The notes: generated from the sequence alone by a model not told the origin. 56,202 bases of DNA, filler included, from Sphacelaria rigidula (GCA_964200075.2; 4 parts of 4 records of this genome joined end to end with filler, not necessarily neighbours in it); one strand, 5' to 3'; numbered from the whole stretch's first letter, positions 3,995 through 56,202 are shown. Program-made: numbers and translations.

Positions 3995-5308
3995 TCAACC
4001 CCTTGACCGCCAAGTCGGATCAGTATGGTTTGGTCGTTTTGATTCTTCAAGTGCGAGTGATGATTCAACAGATTGCCCCCTTTGGTGGATCGAGGGTAAC
4101 AACCGAGTAAATGATCCACCCACAATATCGCTGTACGTACGAAGAACCACTCTCGGGAGCGGACCTTGTGATTGGCTAGTCAAGCTCGAGGCAAATGCAG
4201 AGGATGCGCGCTCGAGGACCACAGTTCCCCCTTTCGCAACACAAGACGTCACAAGAGTACACACCTTCCGAGAAGGCTCAACCATCACTTTCTCCATGGA
4301 CATACTGTCGGACATCCATCTCGCGCTCCCCGTTTCCTGTGATTTTCCGCCCGCGCCAGCATCCGCGCTCGTGGTGGATATACCGCTTTGATGACGAGAG
4401 GGTGCACCGTTAACGGTGGAATTGCAATCGCCTGATCGGAACAAGTTATCCACATCTGCCAAATCCATGATATTGCCGCTCGAGAACTCCCCGTCTCCGA
4501 TTGGTGTGGTATCGAACGACCATCCGCCGCGTAGGGGGGCACCGGATTGTGGTGCGGGCATGGGCGAAAGCAACCCCCCACCGCCATCGCTTTGTGTCGT
4601 CCAGTGTCCGCTGCTACCCTGCTGTGAGGCCAAAAGGAAGGGTTCGAACTCGTGCTTGACACCCGAGGATCGCGGGCTACACAGGTCCACAGACGACACG
4701 TCCAGGGAGTGTGTGGAGGATATATTCGATCGACTCGCGCCTTGGCCACCGACGGGAGGGGAGGTCATGCGGCGCACCACGTCATCCCACTGTTGGCCGG
4801 TTCCCGACAGACCTCGCTGTACCTGTTGCTGCTGTGGTGCTTGCTGCTGCTGCTGCTCCTGCGGTGGAGGCGGCGGCGGCTGTTGGACACCGACCGCCTG
4901 CTGTGGTGGTTGAGCATCTCTTTGGTGGGGTGAAGTGTGATTCATACGTAACTGCTGCATTACGCGTTCGTTCGTGGCAGCTGCGCGTGCATCCACTGCC
5001 GCTGTCGCGGCCACGTCCGCCGTGGCCGCCTGCTGCTGTGGTGCTGGAGACTGGGAAGAGCTGGCGGGCGGCCGTCCCTCCTGATCCCCACCGGGATGGG
5101 CGGAAAAGAGAGTCTTGCGCGGTGTGGCCGCGTCATCATGACCCCCGGCATTGGAAATGGCCGCGCTTTTCCCTGCCTTATCTTCCCCTTGAGGGTTGTC
5201 CATGGTCGACGTGACTGTGTTCTTCTTAGCGTCCTCTCCATCTGGATTTTTTTTTTGGGGGGAAAGGGGGTGGGTTGGGGGGAAAGCTGGAGATGTGGAT
5301 GTGGACAC
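3995..5308 (-). CDS. 437-aa low-complexity (poly-Q/P/A, Ser/Gly-rich) hypothetical protein or large exon
   Basis: 1.3-kb open frame with CAG/CCG microsatellite-encoded QQQQQ/PPPPP runs. No recognisable domain; start codon uncertain. Confidence 0.5.
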   Translation of the reverse strand: MSTSTSPAFPPTHPLSPQKKNPDGEDAKKNTVTSTMDNPQGEDKAGKSAAISNAGGHDDAATPRKTLFSAHPGGDQEGRPPASSSQSPAPQQQAATADVAATAAVDARAAATNERVMQQLRMNHTSPHQRDAQPPQQAVGVQQPPPPPPQEQQQQQAPQQQQVQRGLSGTGQQWDDVVRRMTSPPVGGQGASRSNISSTHSLDVSSVDLCSPRSSGVKHEFEPFLLASQQGSSGHWTTQSDGGGGLLSPMPAPQSGAPLRGGWSFDTTPIGDGEFSSGNIMDLADVDNLFRSGDCNSTVNGAPSRHQSGISTTSADAGAGGKSQETGSARWMSDSMSMEKVMVEPSRKVCTLVTSCVAKGGTVVLERASSAFASSLTSQSQGPLPRVVLRTYSDIVGGSFTRLLPSIHQRGQSVESSLALEESKRPNHTDPTWRSRG

Positions 5309-6899
5309 TGAGTTTGCTGGTCAGCAACGAAAGTTCGAGGTGTTGCGGTATAATGATCGGCAATTATTCATGCCCGAGGGTCGCCTGCACCGTGACCGAA
5401 CCACCGACAATTCCTTGGGTTGGCGTTCATCGCACCATGTGGAGTAGCCAGCAACACGTTCCAAAGTGGCGCGTTCACTCCGGAGAAATTGTAGAGGTGA
5501 ACCCACACTTCGGTACACTTGGCTCTGGATCAACGACCAGTTCTACAGGTGTTTCGCTGTTCAAAATGAACGCTAACGTGAATGGAGTACTGAGTCATAT
5601 TCATGTTGCAAGAAATATTGTTGAGGCCAATGGATTTTTGCCCATCCGCAGATCAGTATCATCAGAGTTCAAAAGACAAGAGGTTGCGCTTCCTCCAGCA
5701 CTCCCATGCCGACATACTAATTCCGATTCTGCTTCGAATCAGTTTCCCACGCATGAAATTCCGTAGGAAGCCTTTACTCGGTCATGGACTATATATTTGA
5801 AGCTTTCGAATAATGTCGGACGACGAAACCACAGCACGGGCATAACGACACCATAGCGAGAAGGTGGCGGCGGAAAACGAGGAAAACGGTTGTTTGCAAG
5901 ACCGTCCATGTCGGGCCTCGTTATCCTTCATCGAAAATGTACCCTTCACATCGAGTCACTCGATGAACACAAATTGATTGCCATGTTGGGAGGCCAATAG
6001 CATAACCACCCACCTGCTCACCATTTGCCTGTTGGACTTTTTTCAACGGTCTTCATACACCAATTTCTAGGTTGCGGCGTATATTTATAAGGTGCCATGT
6101 TTAGCACTTTGGACCTTCGCAAGGTGTGTCTGAGAAACGACAAAAGTCACGACGCAGTTGGTCCATCGCTCACGATGAAGGAACATCCGCTCCATGACAA
6201 CACGGCGGAAAATGTGCGGGAAGGGATTGGGGCGAGAGGGGGGCGAGGCGTATTCATTCGTTGCTTGTCATAGTCGTTCCACCATGGACCACGCATCCCC
6301 CTCTAGACGGAAGAAGGGTTGAAGAGGAGGTGAGATACCTACCGGTTTTGGGACAACGACGGTATCCAGCCGTGTGTGCGTGTGTGTCCAGGCCGATCCA
6401 CGCGTTGTCACCATATCTTATATTCTTTTCCGAATCTCTTCACGGAGTCGATTAGGGAATATTACAAGCTGAAACGCATGTTATTTCTCCGGGTTCGCGC
6501 ATTTGGCAGGGCCCCCGCGCCAACCGAGTGTGATGCTTTCTCGAATCTGGTTGTTGTGCTCTACTTCGCGCACGTAAGGATTCATTGTTTCAAGTCATGA
6601 GCGAAATCAGTAAGAGACAATTCCACACGGGTGTATAATACTGGACCTGGTAAGAATGCAAGCGAAGACCCGCGATGCGGCTGCGATGGTATCGGCGTGA
6701 AATACCTCGACAAATCAGATCTTGAATCACACCGTGTTTCGGCAACGCGACCCTGTCGTTGAGGTTTAGGGTGAGGTCTCTCGACCTCACAGTGCATGAC
6801 CCTTACTTTTGAGATTATCGGCATGGGGAAAGCGAGGACAGACCGGTGGGAAGGATGATTTTGGAGAGTCATCAGGAGGCATCATGTGAAATTCGGGCA

Positions 6900-13978: not shown

Positions 13979-14078
13979 NNNNNNNNNNNNNNNNNNNNNN
14001 NNNNNNNNNNNNNNNNNNNNNNTTAATTAATTAANNNNNNNNNNNNNNNNNNNNNNNNNNNNNNNNNNNNNNNNNNNN
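13979..14078. other. Artificial contig linker (N44-TTAATTAATTAA-N44)
   Basis: 100-bp spacer with a six-frame-stop linker. Confidence 0.97.
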
Positions 14079-26107: not shown

Positions 26108-26254
26108 AGCACGGAAACTATGGAACATCAATCATGCGGAGAGGACATGCTTGGATTTTTGCGCGAATCAAATCGTACGATTCCTATGAGAACGGAGATT
26201 CGTTTGCTACCAGTGATTCATATGGCATAAATCGATAGTAAATCTCACCTGCAA

Positions 26255-26760
26255 TTTATACGGCATGAGCCATGCATACATGCTCCCCACCTAGCACTTA
26301 TAAGGCATGAATCACATGTACATGTTTTCCATATGCCATTCTCACGACACAAATCATACGTAGATGTTTCTCATCTGTCATCCATACGGCATGAATTAAA
26401 CGCGTTTGTTCCACATCTGATATTCGTACGGCATGCATCCTATGTTTCCCATCTGTCATCCATACGGCATGAACTATATGCCCTTGTTTCCCACCTGCTA
26501 TTCGTACGGCATGCATCCTATGTTTCCCATCTATCATCCATATGGCATGAATCATACGTACGTGTTTCCCATATGCTATTCTTACGACACGAAACATACG
26601 TAGATGTTGCCCATCTGTCATCCATACGGCATGAATCATACGCAATTGTTCCCCACCTGCTATTCGTACGGCATGCATCCTATGCACATGTTCATCACAT
26701 ACCATTTACACGGCATGAATCATACGTGAATATTTCCCACCCGCAATTCGTGCGGAGTGA
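26255..26760. repeat. 42/36-bp minisatellite (~12 units)
   Basis: Consensus GGCATGAATCATACGTAGATGTTTCCCATCTGTCATCCATAC. A more decayed array of the same type lies at 25420-25680. Confidence 0.85.
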
Positions 26761-28055
26761 ACAACATTTTTGTTTTCCTGCCAGTTTTTCGTTCAAGAAC
26801 TGTTACTCGTGCAAAGGTTTCACCATCCATTCGTGCCACACGGTTCGGAGCGCACCCAGTCTCGTTCGTACCTCGTGCGATATTACGTCGAATGTACAGC
26901 TTTTCTCATCCGTGATTCATACGTGATGTCTCGTTTGCACATGAATCACACTCAACGTTCACGAAGACTCATCTGGTATGAACTCTGATTCGTCCCATCC
27001 TTGCAATATTAGCACGCCCTGGCTTGAGCATGTTTTGTTGCGTTCATGGAGCAAGATTTTCACGAGCGGAAAAAACGTCTCATGTTCAGAACGTGTCTCA
27101 TCGAGACAAAAACAAAAAGGCAAAAATCTTTGTAACGAAGCGTATTCATCTCCACAACGACCAGTTCGGGTCCCACCGAGAAGACACAAAACGGGCGTTT
27201 ACGGGAGAGCGGTGTTCCTTGTGGCACTGACCGCACTCTCGAATAGTTTTGACCAATCGACAAGCACCACGACAAATGCGACTAAAAAGAACACAACAAA
27301 CGCCACTGGAACGTCACGGAAAGACGTTGCATGTACAGTATCAAGCTCGACAGAACAACCAGACACCCACTGTCCAAGAGCATCACGCCCGGCACGAGCT
27401 CTTGCCCATCCCTATGTATTGTTGTTCATTTCGTGGCGACCCTTAATTTCGAAATTGGAAGAGGGTTGGCCGTGTGTGTGCCATAAACGTTACTCACGAC
27501 GAAGCAGTCGATCTTTATAGATGTGTTCGGGCCATTATTAAGGTGTTCATTTTTCATCATTTTACATCCATTTTCATTCATTTTCTCCCATTTTCGAAAG
27601 GATGGACTTCTTCTTACCCTTCGTCCGAAACAAAAGCGCGGGGTTTTTCATCCCGCGAGGAAAAAAAATCCAACATGAGAATTGTGTCCGAAAATAGATA
27701 AAATTAATCCCAGGTGGCTCCACTCTGGGCCGTCGGGCACTGTGCACCCCATCGTGCTCGTCCGTGTACGAGAGTTGGTGAGTGCCTCGCCAGTGACACT
27801 CTAGGCGAGCTCATGATCGGAATCGGCGGAAATCTGTTGAATTACCCCCTCAAGCCCGCGTAAGAGCATACAACCAGGTCAGCACCCCCGTCTGTATTGG
27901 TACAAAATTTCATAGATGGAAAATGTACTGATGCTGTCTGAGGTATAATCAAGGGTGCACGAAGAATAAAATCCACACACTTACGAATCCCCCCCTCCCC
28001 CTTGCCAAAGAACACAGGCCTACGGCAAGCAACCAATACGAAACCCCGACCCGAC

Positions 28056-28155
28056 NNNNNNNNNNNNNNNNNNNNNNNNNNNNNNNNNNNNNNNNNNNNT
28101 TAATTAATTAANNNNNNNNNNNNNNNNNNNNNNNNNNNNNNNNNNNNNNNNNNNN
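28056..28155. other. Artificial contig linker
   Basis: 100-bp N spacer with TTAATTAATTAA. Confidence 0.97.
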
Positions 28156-34893: not shown

Positions 34894-36299
34894 GGGCGGG
34901 GGCGTACTCATTTATTGCTTCCCTTAGTAGTTTGACCATTGGCCACACATCCCTTTCGAGACGGAGCATCGTTCTTACTCCTATTGCCCTCCGGCGGGGG
35001 GGGGGGGGGGGTAAGAGTCGGAAATTTTTCTCCGGGCGACCCCGCGTTTTCCTGTAAGAAACTAAGCGANNNNNNNNNNCGCTCCCCACCTCACTCCCTG
35101 GGCCGGGTGCTCACGTCGCTCCCGCTTCGGCCCGGCGGGGGGGGGGGGGGGGGGGGCTACGTGTCCGAAATTTTTCTCCGCGCTGCCGCCCGTTTTCACG
35201 TAAAAAAATATGCCAGTTCACACATCTTTTTCCAAAAGGGTCAAAGTACGGAACATGACACCGGCCCCAGATCGGAACGGTACGATATTACGTAATATTC
35301 CGCAAGCGCAAGCTAAAGCCCGACGCGTTGTGAGTTTTGAGTTCAGCGCTTGTGCGGAGAGACTCGGGAACCATTTCCGGGGAGAAAGTGGTGTGGTCGT
35401 TGTGGCGTTCGTGAACGGTAAATGGGCGGAGAAGAGCCGCGAATGTGGGCGCCATGCGCCATGGTTGGAGTTGGCGGGTGGATCCCCTTTCGCGCAGTGT
35501 ACCGCATCAGGTGCAACAGTGTGGGAAGCGATCGACGAGGATGGGTAAATTCTGAGCCGACTGTGGCCCAGATACGATACGATTGAAATATAATTCCTAC
35601 ATCAGGTACACCTGGAATAAACTTGGCCTAGAAGGGGGAAGTAGTGGTTCCTGGAGGCGAGACGTCATTCTGGGCATGACCATATCTCGCGAGTCTTGTT
35701 TTTTTCTGGGGGGGGTTTCGAGGCCTGGGTGCGGGGAAGCCCCTCGATTGCTGTACGCGAAAAATTCGGAGCGAAATCGGCCTAGATTGTGTGTTAAGCT
35801 GTTTTCGCGTTTCTGGTCATTTTTCGTCCCTTTCTTAGGCAAAATACGGGAAGGCATACCTTTTCAACGACACTGCCCTCATCATTACCATCACCGTCAT
35901 TATTTCATGCAAAAAGATATATGTGGACACCTTGCCTTTACGTCCAAATCGTATAATGCTCAGCATCACTCCTGCTACCGCTACATCATAGTACAAGGAC
36001 GTGCCTCACCACCACATTCTGTACAAGGTAGACATGACTTACATACCGTGACCAGTGGCGTACACTATCAATATTAATAGATGAATAGGACACATTCACT
36101 GATTACTCACCATTCCTTATTAGATCAGACACATTCACGTATTACTCACCATTCCGCCGAGAAACAATCGGGAACACACGGAATGTTATGTGCCACAATG
36201 GGTGTATATCCGCTTCAGAGCATCAAAACAAGGGAAACTCTGTGGGCAAGAACAAACTAAGTACCTGGAACATGTGTAGGGGCGGAGAAATCAACAAAA

Positions 36300-42129: not shown

Positions 42130-42229
42130 NNNNNNNNNNNNNNNNNNNNNNNNNNNNNNNNNNNNNNNNNNNNTTAATTAATTAANNNNNNNNNNNNNNN
42201 NNNNNNNNNNNNNNNNNNNNNNNNNNNNN
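42130..42229. other. Artificial contig linker
   Basis: 100-bp N spacer with TTAATTAATTAA. Confidence 0.97.
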
Positions 42230-42465
42230 GATGAGCACCGTGTTGACCCAACTCCACCACCACACCACAGCCTTGGTCAAGGGTAGCAGTGAGAAGGAAT
42301 CATTCCTTGAAGGTGATTCCGGCCCTACACCCGCCGGAAATACCCTCCCCACGCCGTACCGATAAGACCCGTCATGACCTTCGTTGGAGGACGGGGAACG
42401 GAGCAACAAATACTCTACTCAAAGTTTGCGTAGGTTTGCTCCAGGGGTCAACTAGCCTTTTATTA

Positions 42466-42675
42466 GAGGTATCTCAAACTCGGCTCCCGGTATCCTGGTT
42501 TATTTTCTGGCTCCAAGTTGTCTGCTATTTTTTCAAGTGAAAGTGATCGCGATTCACAGGAGGACCTGACCCGGCGGTCAACGGGTCTCATCATCTGATG
42601 GATCGGCATCACTTTCACTTGAAAAAGTAGAACAAAACCAAACCAGGATACCGGGAGCCGAGTTTGAGATACCTC
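42466..42675. mobile_element. 210-bp MITE with perfect 36-bp TIRs
   Basis: GAGGTATCTCAAACTCGGCTCCCGGTATCCTGGTTT at 42466 and its exact reverse complement ending at 42675. The interior is also partly palindromic. Confidence 0.85.
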
Positions 42676-43523
42676 AATTATGCTACAACCCAAAGTGTCG
42701 TGAAACAATTTGGTAGGTCGCCGTTAGCGCCGTTCGGATAAGCTGGTCACTCTCGATTAGATCTTGAACTCTCAATCTCACGAAAACATCGTTAGTTGAG
42801 GCCTGCACTTTACAGTTGCAGAGGAGTGAGAGGTATCAATTGAGACGGAGGGCGCTACGAAGGCATCGACGGAAACTGTTTCCGTCGATAACGCGTAAAC
42901 AGCAGCGCACAGCTTCCTGCTTCGTCTTCTGTGTTTCGGTCGACTTGGATAACATACATGGGACTGGTGTTCTATAGTAGTCCCATAGCACATCAAGAAC
43001 AGGTTCGCCCTGGGCCAGTCACTAGCTGTCTACTTCAGTTCTTTTGTTTTGCCCATCTGCTTCGTTGGTACTTCGTGGTTCTAAAGGTTTCAATGTGTTT
43101 CGACCGTAGCATAGGTCGACGGCTGGTCCGTCAAATGAGGAAAGTGAAGAAGACAACAAAAGTGCGACTTGTACACGGCGGGACGCTTGATGCGGAGCTG
43201 CCGAACGCCAAACCCCAGTTGACAATTGCCAATTGCATGATGTGGAGCATTTTGAGCATGATGCAGTACATGCTCACTACACCTCGAAGTGATGTAGCAG
43301 ATATATGCCTAGGATATATGTCAAGATTAATCATTTGAGAACACGACGTCCGAAAATAGAAAACAAACGGTAACCCGCGACGACAAATGCAAAAATACAC
43401 CATGGGTTGATATTCAACCACGTGTGTGTTTGTCGGTCCGGACGTGGACAATTTTGCGCTCTTACCCCCACGTGTTGCCAGCCCTTTTTTAATTTTTTCC
43501 CCATTCTCCGCTCCTCACGGAGA

Positions 43524-43949
43524 AACAGCCTGGATCCGTTTTTGAGGTTCAACATCCGGGTCAGGTTCAACTCGTAAACAGTGCTTTTCCTGACCTAACG
43601 TCATGGCCAATGAATGTCATACGGACGACCTCATGCCCCCCAACCTCCTTAAAACTATTTTTGGGAGTTGCCCGCCTTCCGCGCTCCCAAAGCGTTTATG
43701 CGAAAGCACAAATTTGGGGCTAAAAATGTCTCATTTTTCGCCCCGATATCGAGGCAAAAAAAGGTGCTTTCGCACATACTCTTTGGGGGTACGGAAGGCG
43801 GACAACCCCCAAAACTAGTTTGAAGGAGGTCGGGGGGCATGAGGTCGTTCATATGAAATCTATTGATCATGACTTGAGGTCAGGGAAAGCACTGTTTACG
43901 AGTTGAACCTCACCCAGATGTTGAACCTCGAAAACGGATCCAGGCTGTT
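43524..43949. mobile_element. ~425-bp fold-back palindrome (non-autonomous TIR element)
   Basis: AACAGCCTGGATCCGTTTT-GAGGTTCAACATC...GATGTTGAACCTCGAAAACGGATCCAGGCTGTT, with ~190-bp arms. Confidence 0.85.
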
Positions 43950-46900
43950 GAGTCTCTGCTGCTGTATACTACAGATGAGTGATTTTCTCATCGCTCATGA
44001 CACTTTCTACCATGGCCCATCCCCACAACCAGCCCGAACGTGTCACTAAAACCAATGGCCATATAACGCCTGGTGTTTGGGTTCGGGCTGCATGAAGCGC
44101 CTCATATTGGCGACATTGTCTAGAACGAACCCAAGCGTGGAAATTCCCAGCTGCTCGTTGTGCTCGGCTTTCCCATTTCGATTTACGTGAAGATTTTACC
44201 AGAGCCATGAACGTTTCTGAGGGGGACTATCGTGGGAAGTGTCTCATCGCTTTGAATGGGATTTTAATTTCATGCAGGCCTCTGAGCTCCTCAATGTGAA
44301 GGGTTGCAAGGGTCACATATTTTACAACTATCAACATTGTTTTAGGGGAAACAAGCCAAATACCGTTATTTTTCTTGCCTCTCATGTTCAAGCTGACGCA
44401 GCCAGTTAACAAAACCTGACTAGCTAGAGCTACCAATCCTCAGCCCTATTAGATTTAGTTGATATTTCATGCTTCGGCCACGTGCTACAGCACTTCCTCA
44501 TAAAGTTTACTACTACGTGCCATTGCCTTTGACACTGGACTTTGCAGGGGCAGCGGACGTATTCGAGCCAGAAACCCCCCAGCGCAAGCAAGCGCTTCTC
44601 GCCTACCTCGACTGGTAGGCTGACGTCCATGCTCAGCACTTCCCGCGCACATGTAGGCGAGAACATCGTCTCCCATCTTTGTGGGTTTGTCCTCTCCGTA
44701 CTTCAGGACTATACCACAGGCATTTTATGACAGTTACAACCCACGGGTATTGTCACGTATTGACGCCCCCTCTTCATATCTAATATTTTTCCAAAAACAA
44801 ATGCGAACCGTCAGAAACTACTTCGCTATTTGTTTATCTTTCATTTTAGTATACTCCTTCTTCTCCGTCGGTTTGTTCACGTTACATGACGCGCACACCA
44901 GGCTAGTATTGTTACGCGGTCAGCCGTGCTCGTCTTACGTGGATTTCATCGGAACACCTCCCTGATTTTTCCCTCCGTTCCCGTTTTGCGGTGTTGGACT
45001 CGCCACTGAAGGTTCCCCGACTCGCGAGCAGTCGTACTGCACACCCACGGTCGGCGGTAAACTGTTTTGCCCGGTCAGTAGCATACGCGCAATTTGAAGC
45101 GTCATGCTCGAGATGTGAACAATAATATCACCATCGCACCATGTGAACTTCGACGTAGTAGTCGAAGAAGACACGATGTCGATATCCCGCTATATCCTTT
45201 CATGTGTTGACCACAGACCGAGAGCGATTGGCTGCAATCGTCATTTGAGCACAGGCGACATGGAGGCACCGAAGTTCGTCTTCATGCAGCGGTGCAGCAA
45301 CCACACTTCTCCCTCCCCGGCGTTACCCCCACTGTAATCGGTAAGCCAAGCAAAATGAAGATCGCACTCTCGCGCATACTCATTCATCACCGACGCGTGT
45401 CCGGGATACGCGCTACGCAATTATAGAGCTGAACTCTTTTCAGGATGATGCGCAACTCAGGATCAACTTCAAATGTTTCAAATAAACCCTGAGTTGGTAG
45501 CCACTGTCCTTCTCGGAGTTTCGTCATATCCTCGCCTCGAACCTCAATATCATAAGATATCCCTGACTTTTTGGACCAGACCTCCCCTTCCCCTCCCATA
45601 TGACTAAGGCATGCAAGATCATGAGTACAGCCCCCTCCTCCCGAAGTCTCAAGGAAGCGGGTACCTCAAGAATATCCTTACTTACGGAATTCGTCAATCT
45701 GATTCATTCTTCATTAAAAAACTATTCCATTCTTTGCTGGTGGTCTGGGGTAAACGTCTTGTCCTCCTTTAGTAGTGCAACCGTTCGCTATCTTCTTACT
45801 GGTCCATGATTTGCGTTTTCATCGTAAAATATGTGAGCGAGGGCACACCCGCAATTCACCACACATTACGTCTAGCCATTGAACAAATCAAAATACAATT
45901 TTTCTCTCAATGAAATTTGTGGTTTATTCTCGCCTATGTTCGTGTTGGCATCGAAGTCTTGCATGAAGTTCGCTTTTACTCAGTCTATATTATTTGGAGG
46001 TGGAACACCAAAGAACAACGTGAGTGATTTGTTGACTGCTTATTGGTTTATGACTTGTGTCGGGGTCAGCGCTTTTTTGTTATCGATATTTGGAAAGATG
46101 GGAGGCTATGTGGGTGAAGAAAACCTCGATTGATCGTAATAACAGGATATCGCACCCCACAATCGTTACGGTTCTCTCACGCATTTCATAGATCGTGTTC
46201 TTCATCAGACCGCGCGTTTGTAAAACAAAAAACTTGGTGTCCGTACTCTGAAACCACTACGGTGGCTTGTGTCCCTCGACCGAACGACCATGCTCTCGCA
46301 CGGTGCGCAGGGTGACGACTGGCAGGCGATATGCGGAGCGTCACCACGAACAGCTCGAAAACTGTGCGGGAGAGAAAAAGCATGTCGTGCTGGCTTACCT
46401 CGGTTCCCTCGTAGCCAGCGACACAATTTGCCGCTTTCTGCCAGTGGCGGCGTCGAATTTGCTGTCAGGAAAACGGGGGCCGAACAACTGCTTGTCCAGT
46501 ACGGCTGGGATGGCCGATGACTTTTCCCCGACAAATTTCGTGATGATCGGTCATGCATGCACATGAAGGTTGAAGGATGACTCTCCTTACTCATCACAGT
46601 AGTCAGAGCAGCGACGCCGGGGGCTTCGACGACGCTCACGTAGGAGTGTGGGTAAAAATATCTTTCTTACTTTGTACTTCAGTGCGTTGGGTGTTTTCCG
46701 AGGCAAAAAGGACACGATAGGTTTATACGCCCGTGCGAGGGGATGTGGGTATGTTATGATCTACGGTGCGTCTCAATGTACGAGGAGGACTGATCATAAG
46801 CTGGATAGTAGGAAGACATATGAAGACATGATGTGGAATCGGAACAGATGGCATCGATAAGTGACGAACAGAAACGACCGACCTAGTGAAAGCAGTATGA

Positions 46901-47404
46901 TATGTTTGCCGTCGCTGTCGAGTGATCGTCGATGGTCCATCATGTACGTTGAAATCCGGGTGAAGAGTTCGATCGACACTTCCAGCCATGGTTCGTGCTA
47001 TATTCCTTGCGATAGTGAAACAATTCTACTGTAAAGATTCTACCCTTAGCACGTCACTGCGGATGAGTATCTACGACAAGGAGGTAAGCAAAGCAGAGCT
47101 GAAGATTGCTATTCGGGCATCGGCCTCGAGGTCTAGAGCCCTGGGACAAATCATCGGCCACCCCAGCCATACTGAACAAGCAGTTCTTCGGTCCCCGTTC
47201 TCCAGACAGTTAAATTCGACGCCGCTGGCAGAAATCGAGGACAGTCGAAGCAATCTACGAACCGAGCAATCTACGAACACCACAATCGCCCAAACCACCG
47301 ACACTTCTTTCCCCTCCCCGAAAATAGTACCGGACAACCACGGATGGTTCTTCTGTCGGGTTTTTTTCACACACCGGACAGCCTTTTGAAACCTCATTTT
47401 CATG

Positions 47405-49686
47405 TAGAACCTCATTTCATGGAATACCCTGTTACATCCTCCGTCCGCAACGTCGCCTCCTTCATCGCCAGAGCTTGCCGGAACAAAGCCTCCACCTCCC
47501 CCGCCGGGTTGAGTCAAACATCTGACCATGTCGTGCACCGTATACGCTACCTGCACATGCTCCGTCCGTAACCTCACCTCCCTGTCCACCAGAGCTTGCC
47601 GGAACAACGACGCCGCCTTCCACGCCCGGTCCGGTAGAGCCAAACATCTGGCCATGTCATGCAGCGTACAAGCTACCTGCACATCCTGCCTCTCCAACCT
47701 CGCCTCCCTGATAGCCAGCAACTGCCGGCAAAAAGCCTCCACCTCCCCTGCCCGTTCCAGTTGAGTCGAACATCTGGTCAACTCTCCCAGCATATGTAAC
47801 AGCTGAACCCGCTCCTCCTCCAACCTCACCCCCCTGGTCGCCGCCACCCGCCGAAACAACGCCTCCGTCTCACCCACCCGCTCCAGTTGAGTCAAACATA
47901 TGGCCAACGCGTACAGTGTGTAAGCTACCTGCGCATCCTTCGTCCCCAATCTCTCCTCCTTGATCGCCGGAGCTCGCCGAGACAACGCCTACAATCCCCC
48001 ACCTGGTCCGGTTGAGGCAAGCATCTGGTCAAGTCATGCAGCGTATCAGCAGCCTGTACATGCTCCGTCCCCAACCTTGCCTCCCTCATCGCCAGAGCTC
48101 GCCGTAACAACGCCTGCGCCTCTCCCACCCGGTCCGGTTGAGTCAAACAACTGGCCAACTCGTGCAGCACATACGCTACCTGAATATGCTCCGTCCGCGA
48201 CCTCGCCTCCCTGTACGCCAGAGCCCGCTGGAACAACGCCTCCGCCTCTCCCACCTGGTCAAGTTGAGTCAAACATCTGGCTACCGCCCGTAGTACATAA
48301 GCTACATGCACGTCCTCCGTCCTCAACCTCGCCTCCCTGATCGCCTTAGCTCGCCGTGACCAAGCCTTCGCCTCCCCCGCCCGCTCCAGTTTAGTCAAAC
48401 ATGCGACCAAGTCGTGCAGCGTACAAACTACCTGCACAAGCTCGTCTCCAACGTGGTCAACTCGATCGCCAGAGCTTGCCGAAACGATGTCTCCACCTCC
48501 CCCGCCCGCTCCAGTCGAGTAAAACATCTGGCCAACTCGTGCAGCGTATAAGCTACCTGCACATCCTCCGTCCCCACCAACCTCGCCTGCTTGATCGCCA
48601 GTGCTCGCCGGAATGACGCCTCCGCCTCCCCCGCCCGCTCGAGTTGAGTCCAGGCCATGTTGGGTAGCGTGTAAGCTATCTCGACATGCTCCGTCTCCAA
48701 CCTGGCCCCCTTCATTGCCAGTGCCCGGCGAAACAACGCATCCGCCTCTGCCGCCCGCTCCAGTCAAGTCAAACATCTGGCCATTTCATGCAGCGTATAC
48801 GCTACCTGCACATCTTCCGTCCCCAACCTCGCCTCCTTGATCGCCAGAGCTCGCCGGAACGACGCCTCCGCCTCTCCCACCTGGTCAAGTTGAGTCAAAC
48901 ATCTGGCTAACACGTGTTGGGCATAAGCTACTTGCACATTCTCCGCCCCCAACTTCGCCCCCTGATCGCCAGCACCTGCCGGAACAAAACCTCCCTCCCC
49001 TCGCCCGCTCCAGTTGATTCGAACATCTGGTCGACTCGTACAGCGTATAAAACAGCTGCACCTGCTCTCTCCTTAACCTCACCTCCCTGCCGCCGCCCGG
49101 CGAAACAACGCCTCCGTCCCCCTCGCTTGCTCCAGTTGAGTCAGACATCTGTCCAACTAGAATAGCGTGGAAGCTACCTGCGCATCGTCCGTCTCCAATC
49201 TCTCCTTCTTGATCGCCGGAGCTCGCCGGGACAACGCTCCCAATCCCCCACATGGTCCAGTTGAGTCAAACAGTGCGCCAAGTCGTGCAGCGTGTGGGCT
49301 GCTTGGACAGTTCCCATCCTCAGCCTCACCTCCTCGATTGCCAAGGGTTGCCGGAACAACGCCTGCGCGCCCCCCGCCCGACCCAGTTTATTAAAACATG
49401 TAGCCAACTCGTACAGCGTACACGTTGCTTGCACATCCACCGTCCCCAACCGTCCCCAACCTCGCTTCCTCCATCGCTAGCACCCGCCGGAACAGCGCCT
49501 CCGCCTCCCCTGCCCGCTCCATTTGAGTGAATCATCTAGCCAAGTCGCCCAGCGTACAAGCTACTTGCACGTCCTCCGTCCCCAACCTCGCCTCCTTGAT
49601 CGCCTTTGGTCACCGTGACCAAGCCTTCGCCTCCCCCGCCCGGCCCAGTTTAGTCAAACATGCGACCAAGTCGTGCAGCGTACAAG
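47405..49686 (-). pseudogene. ~18 degenerate 126-bp TPR repeats continuing beyond the NB-ARC-TPR stop codon
   Basis: The same 42-aa consensus (VQVAYTLHxLARCLTQLERAGEAEALFRRALAIKEARLGTE) appears in shifting frames, with internal stops and indels. Confidence 0.85.
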
Positions 49687-52600
49687 CTATCTGCACAAGC
49701 TCGCCTCCAACGTGGTCAACTCGATCGCCAGAGCTCGCCGGAACAATGCCTCCACTTCCCCCGCCCGCTCCACTCGAGTAAAACATCTGGCCAACTCGTG
49801 CAGCGTATAAGCTACCTGCACATCCTCCGTCCCCACCAACCTCGCCTGCTTGATCGCCAGTGCTCGCCAGAACAACGCCTCCGCCTCCTCCGCCCGCTCC
49901 AGTTGAGTCAAGCATCGGGCCATGTCGTGTGGCGTATTAGCTACCTCCACATGCTCCGTTCCCAACCTGGCCTCCTTGATCGCCAGTGCCCGCCGAAACA
50001 ACGCCTTCGCCTCTGCCGCCCGGTCCAGTCGAGTCAAACATCTGGCCATTTCGTGCAGCGTATAAGCTACCTGCACATCTTCCGTCCCCAACCTCGCCTC
50101 CTTGATCGCCAGAGCTCGCCGGAACAACGCCTCTGCCTCCCCGGCCCGCTCGAGTTGAGTCAGGCACCTGGCCATGTCGTGTAGCGCATAGGCTACCTCC
50201 ACATGCTCCGCCCCCAACTTCGCTTCCTTGATCGCCAGCACCCGCCGGAACAACGCCTCCGCCTCCCCTGCCCGCTCGAGTTGAGTCAAACATCTGGCCA
50301 ACTCGTGCAGCGTATAAGCTATCTCCTCATGCTCCGTCCCCAACCTCGCCTCCCCGATCGCCAGAGCTCGCCTGAACAACGCTTCCGCCTCCCTCGCCCG
50401 GTCTAGTCGAGTTAAACACCCGCCCAACTCGTGCAGCGTATAAGCTATCTCCACATGCTCCGTCCCCAACCTCGCCTGCTTGATCGCCAGAGCTCGCCGG
50501 AACAACGCCTCCGCCTCCCCCGTCCGCTGCAGTTGAGATAAAGATCCTGCCAAGTCGTGCAGCGTAAAAGCTACCTGCACATCCTCCGTCCCTAATATCG
50601 CCACCTTGATCGCCAGAGCTCGCCGAAACAGCGCCTCGGCGTCCCCCACCCGGTCCCGTTTAGTCAAACATCTGGCCACCCCGTGCAGTGTATAAGCTAC
50701 CGATATATCCTCCATCCCCAACCTCGCCTCCTTGATCGCCAGAGCTCGCCGAAACAACGCTTCCGCCTCCCCCGTCCGCTCCAGTTGTGTCAAACATCTG
50801 GCCAACTCGTGCAGCGTATAAGCTACCTGCACATCTTTTGTCCCCAATTTCGCCTCCTTGATCGCCAGAGCTCGCCGGAACAATGCCTCCGCCTCCCCCG
50901 CCCGCTCTAGTCGGATCAAACATCTAGCCAAGTCGTGTAGCGTATAGATTACCCTCACATGCTCCGTCCCCAACCTCGCCTCCTTGATCGCCAGGGATCG
51001 CCGGAACAATGGCTCCGCCTCCCCGACCCGGTCCAGTCGAGTCAAACACCAGGCCAATTCATCCAAAATCAATGTCACATATACCGCACTGATCCCTAGC
51101 CTAGACTCTGTGCTTTGCAGCGACTGACGAAACAAACCTTCTGCTTCTTGCAATCGTCCAGATTCTGATAAACATTGGGCAAGCCCAACTCGCGCGTCCG
51201 CAATCTTTGCGGAGTCAGCATCGAGGTTCGCTTCCTCGGCTGTCTTTAGCGCCCGCCTAAACCACAACTCAGCTTCACCCACTCGCTCCAACGTACGGTA
51301 ACACAAACCAAGCATGTGAAGGAACTGGACAGACTCGCAAGTAGCAGCGTCCATCCCACCAGATTTTAACCGTTCCTTCGCGACGTCCATCAAAGGCTCC
51401 ATCAAACCTCGAAGACGTCGACTCTCTACTTCATCTCGGCATCTCACCGATACCTCACAGTGCCAGAGTGCAGTGAGAGAAGCATGCGGATTCGCCTCCG
51501 GGTTGCCCTCGCATCGTTCCCATAACTTCCGCATCACGGCCTCAGCACCATGAAAATCACGGTTAATGTTATACAGCTCTGCCACAGCCGCCGCCGAAGA
51601 GAAGTACAATGGATCCGAGGAGTCTAGCGCAGACAGCGTAGAATCGTATGGGCGCAACGTGTGCAACTCTTCCCCCCCCACGAGCTCAACCGCCTGCCAC
51701 AGACCCAGAAGGCCGTATGCGTCCACTGAGCGCACCACCTCTAAAGTGGATAAATACGCCTGCCATCTCTCCACAGTTTCTCGGCGTATATCCTCACGAA
51801 TATTCACAAGAGTCCTCCTAGCGAATTCCGAACGAGCGTCGTGCATGCGAAACAGACCAGGCCCTAGCGCGGTGATGATCGCCCAACGCTCCAGAGCTGC
51901 CACCACCTGCCCAGTTCGCTCCAGATCGTGCTCTGAGTGCTCGTGACCGAACAACAACACACAAGCCTCGTACACCTCAAAGGCGTGACCGCCTGGCATT
52001 ACTGCCAAGGCAAGGTAGAGCCACCGGCTCTGCGAATCCTCGGCCCCGAGGCACTCGAAGCCGGCTCGGAGAATCGCGACACGTTTGCTCGCACTGGGAT
52101 CTTTATCTGCGCTTACATCATCATCATTACCGAAGTGTTCTTCCTGAACCTTGTCCAAATAACGCCGGATGACGGTCATCGCCTTGGACCATGAGCCTCC
52201 ATCGCTCCTCTTGTTCACCACTGTCCACCTTGCCACGGACTCCACGTACATGGGCATGTAGTCGCACAGCTCAAACAACTCGTTTACAGGTTCTGGCAAA
52301 CGAGCGCCCTCGGGAAGCTCGGCGGCACTAGCCACCAGCGCCTCTGCTTCCTCCCGCCTCAGCCGCTCCACCATAATCGCCTTGCCACCAGCGTCATCTA
52401 CCAGAACCGGATCTCGGGTCGTGAGCAGCACCCGCATGCCGGTCTTTCGCAGCTCCTGCACGACTTCCGGCTCCCACACGTCGTCCGCCACAAGTAGGCA
52501 CTGCAGACCTTGGAAATTCAAACCTGTATGCATAGCCTCTTGGACATACGCTGTGCCGTTCTTCGGATCGGTCGGTGACTGCCCGGGAGGATACCCCCTG

Positions 52601-53061
52601 CTGTGCAGCACGTTCTCATATACCATCAGCGCCAGGCTCTGCATTAAACTTGGCAGACGCTCGGCCGCATCTCTACCCACGCGGAGCCACACCACGCCAT
52701 CTGAGAACAGGGCCCGCACTCGACTCAGCCGCCCGAGAGCTTGCTGATGTGTCTCCCCGTCCAGGGGTCGGACCACACCCATTCCGTGTCTAACCACCAT
52801 GGCCGCAGCGGTGGTCTTGCCTGACCCACTACGGCCCACTAGCCCCACCATCCACGGACTGCCCTCGGCCACAAAGTGATTGTATATATCGTCCACCACC
52901 GCGTTGCGCACGACATGCCAGCCCTTGGCTTTTGGAGTACCCGCTGGCACTGCAGAAAGCTTCGGTGACGCAAGAGAAGTACACGCAAGGAGAGTCTTCA
53001 GGTCCTCCCGAGTTTCTCGTGTGTCTCTTGCAATTCGATGTTGATCCTGAACAACACGGTT
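49687..53061 (-). CDS. NLR-like STAND NTPase: NB-ARC plus 13 TPR (42-aa) repeats; large terminal exon, N-terminal exon(s) not identified
   Basis: Walker A GRSGSGKT (~52813-52836), Walker B LLVADDVW, sensor-1 LLTTR, GxP-equivalent CDYMP, and MHD (FRMHD, ~51840), then tandem 42-aa TPRs. An acceptor TTGTTTTGGTCTGTCCAG precedes 53061. Confidence 0.92.
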   Translation of the reverse strand, partial: NRVVQDQHRIARDTRETREDLKTLLACTSLASPKLSAVPAGTPKAKGWHVVRNAVVDDIYNHFVAEGSPWMVGLVGRSGSGKTTAAAMVVRHGMGVVRPLDGETHQQALGRLSRVRALFSDGVVWLRVGRDAAERLPSLMQSLALMVYENVLHSRGYPPGQSPTDPKNGTAYVQEAMHTGLNFQGLQCLLVADDVWEPEVVQELRKTGMRVLLTTRDPVLVDDAGGKAIMVERLRREEAEALVASAAELPEGARLPEPVNELFELCDYMPMYVESVARWTVVNKRSDGGSWSKAMTVIRRYLDKVQEEHFGNDDDVSADKDPSASKRVAILRAGFECLGAEDSQSRWLYLALAVMPGGHAFEVYEACVLLFGHEHSEHDLERTGQVVAALERWAIITALGPGLFRMHDARSEFARRTLVNIREDIRRETVERWQAYLSTLEVVRSVDAYGLLGLWQAVELVGGEELHTLRPYDSTLSALDSSDPLYFSSAAAVAELYNINRDFHGAEAVMRKLWERCEGNPEANPHASLTALWHCEVSVRCRDEVESRRLRGLMEPLMDVAKERLKSGGMDAATCESVQFLHMLGLCYRTLERVGEAELWFRRALKTAEEANLDADSAKIADARVGLAQCLSESGRLQEAEGLFRQSLQSTESRLGISAVYVTLILDELAWCLTRLDRVGEAEPLFRRSLAIKEARLGTEHVRVIYTLHDLARCLIRLERAGEAEALFRRALAIKEAKLGTKDVQVAYTLHELARCLTQLERTGEAEALFRRALAIKEARLGMEDISVAYTLHGVARCLTKRDRVGDAEALFRRALAIKVAILGTEDVQVAFTLHDLAGSLSQLQRTGEAEALFRRALAIKQARLGTEHVEIAYTLHELGGCLTRLDRAREAEALFRRALAIGEARLGTEHEEIAYTLHELARCLTQLERAGEAEALFRRVLAIKEAKLGAEHVEVAYALHDMARCLTQLERAGEAEALFRRALAIKEARLGTEDVQVAYTLHEMARCLTRLDRAAEAKALFRRALAIKEARLGTEHVEVANTPHDMARCLTQLERAEEAEALFWRALAIKQARLVGTEDVQVAYTLHELARCFTRVERAGEVEALFRRALAIELTTLEASLCR

Positions 53062-54280
53062 CTGGACAGACCAAAACAAGTGATGCGGATATCGTGGAGG
53101 AAGTATTACAAGCGAGAAGGGTCAACTGTACGAATTGAACTTCATCTTTCGGAAACATCGATGTCGTGCTTCGGAGGGCTACCATCGTTTATTTAGGCGG
53201 CTTATCAGATGGCTCTAGAGGCAGAAAGTCATACCTGATAGCATTTGCTCTTTTAGTCTTGAAATGCTACATAAGTCGGGTTGAACCTGAAATTTTGGGC
53301 GAAACAAGTGCCGTACAAAATCTGCACAACCGTCGTGCACAGCACCAGTCAACCAAAATACATCCACAGTCTGACCTTCCTACGACAACGGGAAGAGAAA
53401 AGGGGGTTTGTAACGGCTACTACAAGTGGTAAATAGACACAAACCTGGAGTATTGTGTCTCTCACCAATAGCAGTGCGGACTAGACTAGTGTAGCAAAAG
53501 GCTTGTGAGATGTGAAAAAAATGGCAGATGGAATAACTCTCCCTGTGGAGCGTGCTGTGTGCTCGCCATTCACACAAATATATTGCATTGTCATACCGTA
53601 ACCTCCCCATGCTGAAAGGATTTGTATATGGCTGGCGCGCATACCGAGGGGTGGACAGAGGTTGCTTTCTATCGGTCGCTGGCCAGTTGAAAATTGACAA
53701 TTTGAAGTGAGTGCTGGAGTAATAAACCCGTGATGTGCCTTGCGTCCTTCTTATGCGCAAGTGGTGAGGCGTGATGCTTGCCCCATTTCCAATGCTCGCA
53801 TCGTACTGTGTTCGTGTTCCCCTGCCGCAAGGATTCCAGTTTGAGTGCCCCTCGCGTGAGTTAAGCAGAATTTGCTCCCTGGATATTGTTGGTGGTCACC
53901 TTGCAAGCTCGATATGCTCGCAATGAAAACGGCATGATTAATTTTCCCCAAAGGGTGAAGCGGTATCTCCTCAGTCGAGTGCGTCGTTCCTCGCGGGGAG
54001 TGCTTCGGTGCCACAATATCGATTGCCGTGCTTCTTGCTTTGAGAATCAGCCCAAATATCGCCTAGGGTTCTGATACAACACTGGATGAAATATAAATGG
54101 ATTGTGGACACCTACGTTCATAGTCTGTTGTGCATGTGAAAACGATCATAATCAACAAATGGAGTATATTCACATGACCCACGGATGAACTGTAATGGCT
54201 CTCAGACTTGTAGGGACACGCTCACAGTCGGGCTGTGTGAAGAAACATCTTGAGCTACCGCGCTTTCAATCATGGCACAG

Positions 54281-54360
54281 CGCCTCGCCCGGGTGGTTTG
54301 ACTGTCACACCTTGAAACCGGGTAGGGTACAGATGAGGATTCGAATCCCAGCAGAGGTTG
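54281..54360 (+). mobile_element. Diverged tRNA-like SINE head
   Basis: CGCCTCGCCCGGGTGGTTTGACTG...GGATTCGAATCCC: B-box-like, and similar to the family A head. Confidence 0.35.
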
Positions 54361-55774
54361 TTCTTATTCCCAGCACCATGTGACTAGCTTTGCTGAAAGC
54401 GAGACGTCTTGAGCCGATGCGGTGTGGGAGTGCCGATCCAAACCGCGGTACCAAGATGTGAGGTATGTAACAAAAATGGAGTGATCTCCTGAAACCACAG
54501 GCTCGTCACGAGGAAGGATAAGGATGGGAAGTAGACGAGGTGGACGTATATCAAGTATCCCCAACTAACGCATTCGACCTGCATGACGTTTGTTAATCGC
54601 AGGTGCGCCGGCTTTGTTATCATTATGTTTCAGTGCATGGGCAATACCTGAACAAAGTATGGCGACGTACATACATAAAGTGATACCAAGGCACAGTTAG
54701 AATATTCAACTGAGGCTCCTGACTTTTCTTTTTTTCCACGGCGGCTGAAGATGTGTGCTCGGTGCACATGTACAACGGGCAGAGCCACTTGTCATGACGG
54801 GCAGAATAGCTTTTGCATACATGACCCGTCGGGGGGAAAGTGGTGTTTTATTCCGCTCAGACAACACGTGTGCAAGAGGCAGCCAACGTCGCCAATTATG
54901 CCGGTGAACACTGACAACACAAGTTGGTGAAGCCGTGTCTCCTCGTTTTTGTGGCAGGTTGTTGAGGGTTGTCTGGCGGATGGGGCGAGGGTGAGGAGGT
55001 TCGGAAATATTTCCGGAAATAAGAGGCTAGGGTTAGTCCTTGTATTGGGTAACTCTTTGACCGCGAGGGTAGCTTTGTTATGGATCGCGGCATACATGGA
55101 GGAAGGGCAGTACAATGATGGGTCCATCTAATCTGATGGAAAAGTCCCGGAGGGCTGACTGCGGGAACTGGCAATGTGCCGCAGTCAACGGGGAGGATGT
55201 TTGAGCCCGTACGCAGACGGTTACATAAACATGCCTCTTTACATCCGGCTTGAACTCGGTTCTTTCAGAATCGGTGAAAGCCGGCCCCCTGGTTTTTACT
55301 CCTATGGAAGGGAACGAAGTGACCTGAGACATGAGATTCAAAGCCACCAGTGCAAAAGAGAAATACCATCGCCTGAAGCTGTGAACAAGACACCCTAGCA
55401 TTCAGAATGAGCTGTTCCTCGTTAAACTGATCATTCCTTGTGCTGGAAAACTGTTTTGCCCTGCGATAAATGGTGGGCGAGTACGTATAAATCACTGCAT
55501 AGTGTATTGCACATGGATGAAGATGCCGCATGTTTGGTTGAAGTAGGAAATTTCACTTCATGCCCCGTCTTGTAAATATCCGTCATCACAGTGCTTGAGC
55601 AGCGATCATGGTAACCATAACAATTGAGACAGTAGTAAAAACGAACTAGTGCACGGACTAGCCAGACAGGCTACTACAATATTTTGTCCGTATCAGCTTA
55701 TCTAGTCATGCAGTGATTTCACAACAAAACTTGATACTGATTCAACAGATTGATCTATGCTCGCGGTCAACGGC

Positions 55775-55880
55775 TTAACCCTTACACCGCGAGAGTAGTT
55801 CATCTGGATCATTCACACGTTTTTCAAGTGAAATTGATGCCGGTTCAACAGATGACCTACTATCGTCGTCAAAGGGTTAA
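55775..55880 (+). mobile_element. piggyBac-type MITE flanked by TTAA (decayed tandem copy just upstream, ~55680-55778)
   Basis: TTAA-CCCTT...AAGGG-TTAA, 98 bp between the TTAAs. TTAA target sites with CCC...GGG ends are the piggyBac signature. Confidence 0.7.
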
Positions 55881-56202
55881 CGATGACTGAGTAGAGGAAC
55901 TTTCGATTTCGGGTATGTGTGATTGTGGTGCATGCTCCCAGGTGATCATACTCTCATGGTTAAAACGGTACGGGGAGTTATCAATAATGACTATCCCCCG
56001 ATAAGAGCGTACGTGTTCTGCTTCACTTGACAGATGCACATTAACTCATCCCCGAGGGATTTAGTCATGGTCAGAAGGTAAGACGTACCCAAGGTGAACG
56101 ACACGGGAACACTCGCTGAAAAAAAACCCGAAAAAAACGAAAAAAAAAAAAAAAGTGAGCTGAAAAGCTTCAAAAGAAGGAAGAAAAAAGAGACACAACA
56201 AC

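Follow-up and report, generated by a model that had tools for sequence, protein, structure and literature searches.

The window, a stretch of 56,202 nucleotides of DNA from the brown alga Sphacelaria rigidula, contains on its minus strand a gene of the NB-ARC-TPR type whose TPR units continue far beyond the stop codon. We found that one head-to-tail array of 126-bp units forms the 3' part of this gene, with 13 units read in frame and 18 lying silent behind a frameshift, and that the silent tail has been duplicated in a ten-unit register, at least once across the border between coding and silent units, while under relaxed constraint. The locus is best explained, and in our judgment probably so, as a functional and expressed receptor-like gene whose dead repeat tail has been retained, duplicated and occasionally homogenized with the coding end by the ordinary recombination of a tandem array. 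A preliminary description of the locus had proposed the tail as a candidate reservoir of variant repeats for receptor diversification. We found no support for a maintained reservoir.

The gene and its repeat array

On the minus strand, which carries every feature of the gene and array given below, 1144 codons are open, stop to stop, from 53121 to a TAG at 49689–49687. The 1130-aa frame in this span (49687–53079) contains an NB-ARC nucleotide-binding domain at 52168–52902 (residues 60–304; PF00931, E 1.3e-12, 47.9 bits against a Pfam cut-off of 23.5), together with matches to TPR_12 (E 2.1e-82) and TPR_10 (E 8.5e-57). A search with residues 1–570, counted from 53061, against 5.8 billion proteins at E ≤ 0.001 returned 62 proteins, the best non-self match being 65% identical; those that carry a species name belong to brown algae, namely Scytosiphon promiscuus, Ectocarpus spp. 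and Sphacelaria rigidula. One further match, P0050 (37% identical to the query), is labeled as a partial TPR protein of a Verrucomicrobiota metagenome-assembled genome and, because all other named matches are brown-algal, appears to be algal sequence that was binned with a bacterium. In an alignment of 14 sequences that uses the numbering of the same 570-residue query, the invariant columns include G76, S78, G79, G81, K82 and T84; A192, D193, V195 and W196; T214, T215 and R216; and H407 and D408, which we take to be P-loop, Walker B and MHD-type motifs. The nucleotide-binding columns are intact in the gene, and among solved structures APAF-1 (1z6t) is its closest match in sequence (E 1.7e-4). 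The Pfam domains, the brown-algal relatives and the invariant nucleotide-binding columns identify the predicted protein as a member of the brown-algal NB-ARC-TPR family, in agreement with the preliminary description. When the same NB-ARC alignment was used against metagenome contigs (594 pattern matches) and genome contigs (600 pattern matches), zero loci were confirmed. The database protein for the window's own gene (P0001) is a model that stops at 707 aa, and automated predictions for genes of the family probably misplace the 3' end.

Tandem Repeats Finder reported a 126-bp period at 47434–51057 (28.8 copies, 74% matches, score 3404), and self-identity is 0.557 at an offset of 126 compared with 0.27–0.33 at the other offsets between 120 and 132. 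A unit profile built from eight coding units and run over both strands of the whole 56-kb window gave 33 rows, every one of them on the minus strand: 29 strong rows (E 4.9e-39 to 2e-16) at 51065–47453, two weak rows (E 0.004 and 0.18) that are the divergent first units and place the array copies within 51290–47453, and two rows at noise level (E 7.7 and 8.3). The rest of the window holds no copies of the unit. As the profile found no TPR units on the opposite strand, their presence in the window is ruled out. Segmentation resolved the array into 31 gap-free units of ~126 bp, U01–U31 (51351–47445), with a stub of a 32nd unit of ~17 nt at 47450–47434. The units abut directly, without intron-sized spacers. 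The single uninterrupted array of about 31 units that had been described is thereby confirmed, with its ends, placed earlier at about 51330 and 47405, each off by 20–40 nt, and the helix-A variants that had been quoted were all found.

The first 13 units (U01–U13, 49712–51351) are in frame and encode 42 aa each. U01–U03 are divergent from the remaining coding units, and U04–U13 share a pairwise nucleotide identity of 76.6–88% (mean 82.5%). U13 is 125 nt long, which moves the frame by −1. The linker behind it is rearranged, with a net loss of 1 nt relative to the canonical linker, and together with the stop makes up what we refer to as termination module 1 (49687–49725), which recurs at about 48428–48465. 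The C-terminus of the protein reads ...AIELTTLEASLCR, the frame closing after 13 odd residues, and is followed directly by the TAG. Behind the stop lie the 18 out-of-frame units of the silent tail, U14–U31 (47445–49711), arranged head to tail in the orientation of the coding units. Thus the earlier account of 13 in-frame units, ended by a frameshift in the linker of unit 13 and followed by ~18 more units of the same orientation with stops and indels, holds in each of its parts.

Eight of the silent units carry stops or frameshifting indels (U14, U15, U17, U18, U19, U21, U27 and U31), and the other ten are open in the TPR frame. This frame moves eight times along the tail (the indels listed are −1, +10, −1, −4, −1, −1, −1, −1 and −5), and U16 and U28–U30 share the frame of the gene. 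The tail has five in-frame stops; U14 and U15 have one in-frame stop each directly after the shift. The silent units depart from the coding consensus at 368 positions; had all of these changes been random, 12.9 stops would be expected (95% range 7–20), and only 0.4% of the simulations gave as few as the five observed. The corresponding expectation for the coding units is 4.7 stops, with none observed. Because the stops are fewer than random differences predict, the silent units, or their templates, were formerly coding: much of their diversity dates from that time, and the units are not long dead.

Past the stub of the 32nd unit, the TPR frame of the last half-unit, read by hand (47412–47450), reaches a TGA at 47414–47412 that may be the ancestral stop of a formerly longer open frame. 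Several relatives also end a few residues past a linker. Furthermore, the C-termini of five of 61 relatives (P0037, P0041, P0045, P0047 and P0059) resemble an out-of-frame TPR unit, at ~20 times the rate elsewhere in those proteins, and one of these models comes from Ectocarpus sp. CCAP 1310/34. Such ends are a weak hint of frameshifted arrays, or of mis-called last exons, elsewhere in the family, the patterns having been picked partly post hoc.

Two layers of ten-unit duplication and relaxed constraint

The nearest relatives of U11–U14 lie exactly ten units downstream, at U21–U24, with identities of 92, 88, 95 and 93%, respectively. The same spacing relates U17–U19 to U27–U29 (79, 83 and 78%), and U20 is 86% identical to U25; the mean identity among silent units is 72%. 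A maximum-likelihood tree of 29 units, with U01 and U02 omitted as too divergent, contains seven strongly supported sister pairs: U11/U21, U13/U23 and U14/U24 (support 100/98–99), U12/U22 (93/79), and U17/U27, U18/U28 and U19/U29 (95–100). Coding and silent units are mixed in this tree, with ten label changes compared with a mean of 9.0 for shuffled labels. The lesions are duplicated as well. The rearranged linker and stop are present twice, at 49712 and 48452, and the −1 deletion in U17 recurs in U27, both units then reading into one short basic peptide and a stop (termination module 2). This second module belongs to an older higher-order repeat with copies at U17–U19 (48953–49323) and U27–U29 (47698–48074), recognized by identity, the shared lesion and the tree. 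Since sister units share their lesions (U13/U14 with U23/U24, and U17 with U27), the duplication postdates inactivation, and the tail is a ten-unit higher-order repeat that grew while already silent.

A younger layer is superimposed on the older one. We aligned U09–U20 to U19–U30 and evaluated the best low-divergence segment against 300 column permutations. This segment pairs 50125–49555, which covers the latter half of U10 through the beginning of U15, with 48860–48294, which covers the latter half of U20 through the beginning of U25 and lies exactly ten units downstream. The two copies are 92.6% identical over 565 columns (42 mismatches), compared with 79.4% outside the tract (20.6% mismatch), and the likelihood ratio was equalled in none of the 300 permutations. 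The first copy crosses the border between coding and silent units and contains the stop. Finding no mosaic tracts had been named in the preliminary description as an outcome that would speak against its proposal; the block alignment and the unit tree revealed a tract that links coding and silent units across the border. Within silent DNA only, the tract has 9/122 differences versus 46/306 in the older layer (Fisher p = 0.037). The simplest history is an old unequal exchange of ten units, followed by a later in-register conversion or a second exchange, whose direction is unreadable from one genome.

Coding and silent members of the young pairs differ in how far they have changed. Silent copies have accumulated 21 derived changes and their coding sisters nine, and the terminal branches of U21–U23 (0.087, 0.084 and 0.035) are about three times longer than those of U11–U13 (0, 0.051 and 0.017). 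The ratio of nonsynonymous to synonymous divergence (dN/dS), calculated by the Nei–Gojobori method, is 0.41 among the coding units U04–U13 and 0.78 among silent units, reaching 1.2 and 1.4 in the young silent pairs U14/U24 and U20/U25. As derived changes, branch lengths and dN/dS are all higher in the silent copies, the tail is under relaxed constraint, and the coding units are under purifying selection.

Transcript-like contigs and independent sequencing runs

Nine public runs in three studies contain the stretch, and four of the samples (X1, X3, X5 and X9) were compared as short-read contigs, none of which spans the array; contig depths and uncovered parts were not taken as evidence on copy number or expression level. 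No run is on record as RNA, and X5–X8 are marked as possible RNA by an automated guess. X5, from one study, comprises 83 million letters of contigs, and its status as RNA derives from this guess plus a splice-like end. X5 has depth in all bins of 46767–53174 and none at 53175–54500, where three DNA-like runs continue collinear with the window. Its single loose end lies at 53062 and is 212 letters long; 30 letters of it gave no matches within the window at up to three mismatches. On the minus strand at 53062, a pyrimidine-rich run is followed by CAG, a canonical acceptor that is in phase with the codon starting at 53061. It is probable that X5 is RNA, that the last exon starts at 53061 and that an upstream exon lies outside the window. 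The coding part of this giant last exon would then extend from the acceptor AG at 53063–53062 to the TAG (49687–53061). The open frame has no ATG ahead of the P-loop within the window, and hence the start codon must sit in the upstream exon, whose position beyond the window explains the missing ATG.

Inside the array, the X5 contigs show zero joints and zero loose ends (four pieces over the coding units and three over the tail). Because of this, and as the probable-RNA contigs are collinear with the DNA, we conclude that the array is intronless, as the preliminary description had claimed. That description had posed the question of whether the tail is 3' untranslated region (3'UTR) or is spliced in. 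Probable-RNA contigs span 46937–53062 and cover the tail without a joint, and the tail most likely lies within a 3'UTR of about 2.7 kb. The non-repeat remainder of this presumed 3'UTR (46937–47444) reaches to the end of an X5 contig (46937–48265); a 16-nt tandem repeat of 2.4 copies is present in it at 47249–47287. The depth of X5 drops to 2.2 at 46500–46766 while X1 goes on, a weak hint, from one study, that the 3' end of the transcript is near 46937.

Contigs of X1, X3 and X5 have no differences from the window over 46500 or 46937–48265, about 48580–48830 and 48880–49601. These pieces, from three samples and two studies, amount to about 79% of the tail (1794 of 2267 bp) and include most of its lesions, which argues that the lesions are not assembly errors. 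We take the U13/U14 frameshift as real because no indel rows were reported at that position and because it recurs in two copies that were assembled separately. The fourth sample, X9, is labeled an algae metagenome. It differs from the window by 10 substitutions and two gaps at 46925–48265 and by 20 substitutions and five gaps at 48862–49602, and by 3 to 10 substitutions, without gaps, in each of five pieces across the gene and its upstream flank. Its indels in silent units are +5 at 48992 and +1 at 49604, with −1, −1 and −2 in the 3' flank. In the open frame, the only indels relative to other samples are at 51525–51528 (X5 and X9), and these cancel each other.

Some contigs depart from the window. 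One X9 contig (depth 11.2) joins 49661 to 48801 via 24 other letters. The result resembles a hybrid unit whose helix A matches none of those in the window, and the contig may derive from a structural variant of this array or from a paralogous one. In X1, X3 and partly X5, variant contigs at 51907–51937, 52161–52216 and 52409, within the NB-ARC region, suggest a close paralogue or second allele, which may also be expressed. Two X1 contigs leave the tail or the 3' flank at 47080 and 47644, each with 255 unrelated letters; the end of the tail may have been copied in part to other places in the genome, or a minor haplotype may carry an insertion.

Origin of the silent tail and comparison with known systems

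In the history that we consider probable, an expressed STAND/NLR-like brown-algal gene carries its whole TPR sensor domain as one intronless array in a last exon of ~6 kb. The rearranged linker after the 13th unit closes the frame and leaves the 18 units behind it untranslated, most likely as 3'UTR and presumably on the same mRNA as the open frame. The array kept recombining with itself in its ten-unit register, presumably by unequal crossing-over, gene conversion or both, copying two distinct frameshift-plus-stop modules along with their units. A later exchange of ~570 bp then homogenized a block made up of the final 3.5 coding units, the stop and the silent unit that comes next with its counterpart exactly ten units downstream. 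The silent units drift under relaxed constraint, presumably without any selected function, while purifying selection keeps the coding units. The preliminary description had itself named decay after a truncating mutation as an alternative to its reservoir; this alternative is the better fit provided that continuing exchange between repeats is included, for the tail is more than a remnant in simple decay.

Several observations weigh against this history. The RNA identity of X5 depends on an automated guess and on our reading of the splice-like end, the listed X5 pieces leave 49602–49839 unbridged, so that no single molecule was seen with both open frame and tail, and the window has no start codon. 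None of the listed pieces crosses the U13/U14 frameshift, as the contigs break in the duplicated tract. The two-layer test on silent DNA is modest at its p value of 0.037, and dN/dS in the old silent pairs is 0.62, which is under 1, although from small counts. Of the 18 silent units, ten retain an open TPR frame, and the last one, U31, is the nearest of all silent units to the coding consensus (11 differences), which purely clock-like decay does not predict.

If the reservoir of the preliminary description were a maintained archive, selection would keep the tail as a donor of variant TPR units, passed to the expressed array by germline or somatic conversion or unequal exchange and adding to receptor diversity. 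As a maintained, cis-linked and intronless cassette bank, the tail would use its ten-unit register for out-of-phase pairing, and block swaps would alter TPR number and sequence in the germline or even in somatic cells, the latter having been proposed for the family by Zambounis et al. (2012). The ~570 bp tract does pass from coding into silent DNA and keeps the register of the older repeat, coding and silent units are interleaved in the tree, more than half of the silent units are open, U31 is near-consensus, and the tail has been retained and is seen in transcript-like contigs; controlled recombination has also been proposed for the family (Zambounis et al. 2012, PMC3341825). However, the sole clear tract holds the frameshift and the stop, so that transfer toward the gene would shorten the receptor rather than diversify it, and which copy was the donor cannot be read. 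Tandem arrays in general acquire such mosaics through ordinary unequal crossing-over, and here the lesions were copied with their units. Modules preserved by selection are a feature of donor archives, and what we found instead is lesions in eight of 18 units, 21 derived changes versus nine in the coding sisters, a rise of dN/dS from 0.41 to 0.78 and frame-changing indels between the window and X9. We therefore regard a maintained archive as unlikely. That the whole locus is a transcribed pseudogene is, in our view, slightly less likely again. In its favor, no ATG precedes the P-loop in the part of the frame that the window holds, and the family has a high death rate, with five of 24 Ectocarpus loci called probable pseudogenes (PMC3341825). 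On the other hand, 1144 codons are open, the nucleotide-binding columns are intact, dN/dS among the coding units is 0.41, the indels in the frame relative to other samples cancel, and the spliced upstream exon of at least 212 nt in X5 could provide the start.

The tail could also act as RNA, its 18 TPR-like units offering many target sites, working as a sponge or giving rise to small RNAs, for example, and so regulating the gene and its paralogues. This conjectural role would fit the tail's presence, at the level of bins, in transcript-like contigs, but a scan of 42230–56202 at Rfam gathering thresholds gave no matches and the tail is no better conserved than its flanks between the window and X9; we consider it distinctly improbable. 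Even less probable is that part of the tail is translated, through alternative splicing in the array or ribosomal frameshifting, into longer or variable C-termini. U16 and U28–U30 are in the frame of the gene, and the title of a study by Teng et al. (2023) reportedly ties alternative splicing to the diversity of the NB-ARC-TPR family. Against this, X5 has no joints or loose ends in the array, although contigs drop rare isoforms, the units are contiguous without intron-sized spacers, and U14 and U15 have an in-frame stop directly past the shift. Programmed frameshifting is ruled out by the U14 stop immediately behind the shift. Finally, tandem arrays are error-prone in assembly, and 49602–49839 and 48266–48579 are uncrossed by the listed contigs, but the notion that the frameshifts are assembly errors is scarcely credible given that X1, X3 and X5 match ~79% of the tail without differences, most lesions included, that the first frameshift is a complex rearranged linker in two copies with differing substitutions around it, and that the silent units differ by many substitutions and stops in addition to indels.

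We thus return to an expressed receptor-like gene with a retained and recombining dead tail. Brown-algal NB-ARC-TPR genes are candidate immune receptors, and their diversity has hitherto been explained by the shuffling of one-repeat exons. The ~4 kb locus is amplifiable, and the movement of units between silent and coding parts, repeat-number variation among individuals and tissues, and the effect of a repeat-filled 3'UTR on expression are therefore measurable. If exchange is frequent and directional, the locus bears on whether brown algae make receptor diversity by recombination; if it is not, the locus is a clean case of birth-and-death within a single gene.

The window is a scaffold of several contigs; the gene lies in the stretch 42230–56202, whose 13,973 bases equal the length of the longest contig listed for P0001. 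Runs of N at 13979–14078, 28056–28155 and 42130–42229 are pairs of 44 N with 12 bases between them, and 35070–35079 is a run of 10 N. A long hairpin with 186-nt arms that are 87% complementary and a 54-nt loop lies within 43524–43949, ~3.5 kb downstream of the gene, and a small palindromic element at 42461–42680 (46- and 57-nt arm pairs) has an inverted 36-nt relative across the gene at 55820–55855. These may be elements of the miniature inverted-repeat transposable element type that flank the locus. Elsewhere, a 231-codon open frame at 26231–26926 on the plus strand encodes a reiterated SHLSSIRHE-like peptide, has no Pfam match and seems to reflect tandemly repeated DNA, not a gene, and a 441-codon frame at 3995–5320 on the minus strand, rich in Q, P and A and also without a Pfam match, may be an exon of a low-complexity protein. 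In all, six long open frames besides that of the gene were compared with Pfam, and none matched a family.

Higher-order repeats in satellite arrays arise by out-of-register unequal crossing-over. The array described here resembles them in having a period of 10 × 126 bp imposed on the basic period and layers of unlike age, and differs in that it lies inside a protein-coding gene and its 3'UTR and repeats the higher-order unit no more than about 2.3 times. Chicken pseudo-V genes, pilS and the archives of VSG genes are silent-cassette systems of diversification. The lamprey VLR is the system of this kind cited in the account of the Ectocarpus family (Zambounis et al. 2012, PMC3341825). The likeness to these systems is an expressed gene beside a bank of unexpressed, related partial modules, the two having undergone a copy-type exchange at least once. 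The differences are that the direction of the one clear tract is not readable here, that the bank units bear marks of decay and lie in the apparent transcript of the gene, and that this tract takes in the stop codon.

Fungal NLRs with highly internally conserved (HIC) repeats, for example the HNWD and NB-ARC genes of Podospora, are described as gaining, losing and shuffling their repeats by unequal crossing-over and gene conversion (PMC13449251), and the same source credits brown-algal receptors with "a sort of weak HIC" (PMC13449251, 2026). The Sphacelaria gene has the same order of a NOD/NB-ARC domain and then contiguous tandem repeats that are similar at the nucleotide level. In contrast, its unit identity of 77–88% (mean 82.5%) is lower than that of fungal HIC repeats, which makes it weak HIC at best, and repeat-induced point mutation is not applicable here. 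A silent repeat tail behind the stop is not described in the passages on fungal HIC NLRs (PMC13449251).

The closest comparison is with Ectocarpus, whose 24 NB-ARC-TPR genes include 13 with one 126-nt exon per repeat and, within introns and on the coding strand only, TPR exons inactivated by stops or frameshifts (Zambounis et al. 2012, PMC3341825). Local duplications in the TPR domain and high rates of birth and death are reported there too, along with the idea of controlled recombination. The Sphacelaria locus shares with these genes the family, the lineage, the 42-aa (126-nt) unit of TPR plus linker, the local duplications and the dead copies on the coding strand only. A limited literature search found no paper on NB-ARC-TPR genes that describes silent TPR units following the stop codon, and priority is uncertain. 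The one-TPR-per-exon layout of the Ectocarpus repetitive-exon clade is absent here, the units being contiguous and the X5 pieces collinear. Whereas the dead copies described for Ectocarpus sit in introns between one-repeat exons, the Sphacelaria units abut without introns, all dead units lie in one block behind the stop and in transcript-like contigs, and the ten-unit higher-order repeat has duplicated the stop itself. The locus therefore represents a second architecture within the family, an intronless array that recombines with itself in a ten-unit register and carries ~2.3 kb of dead units in its apparent transcript.

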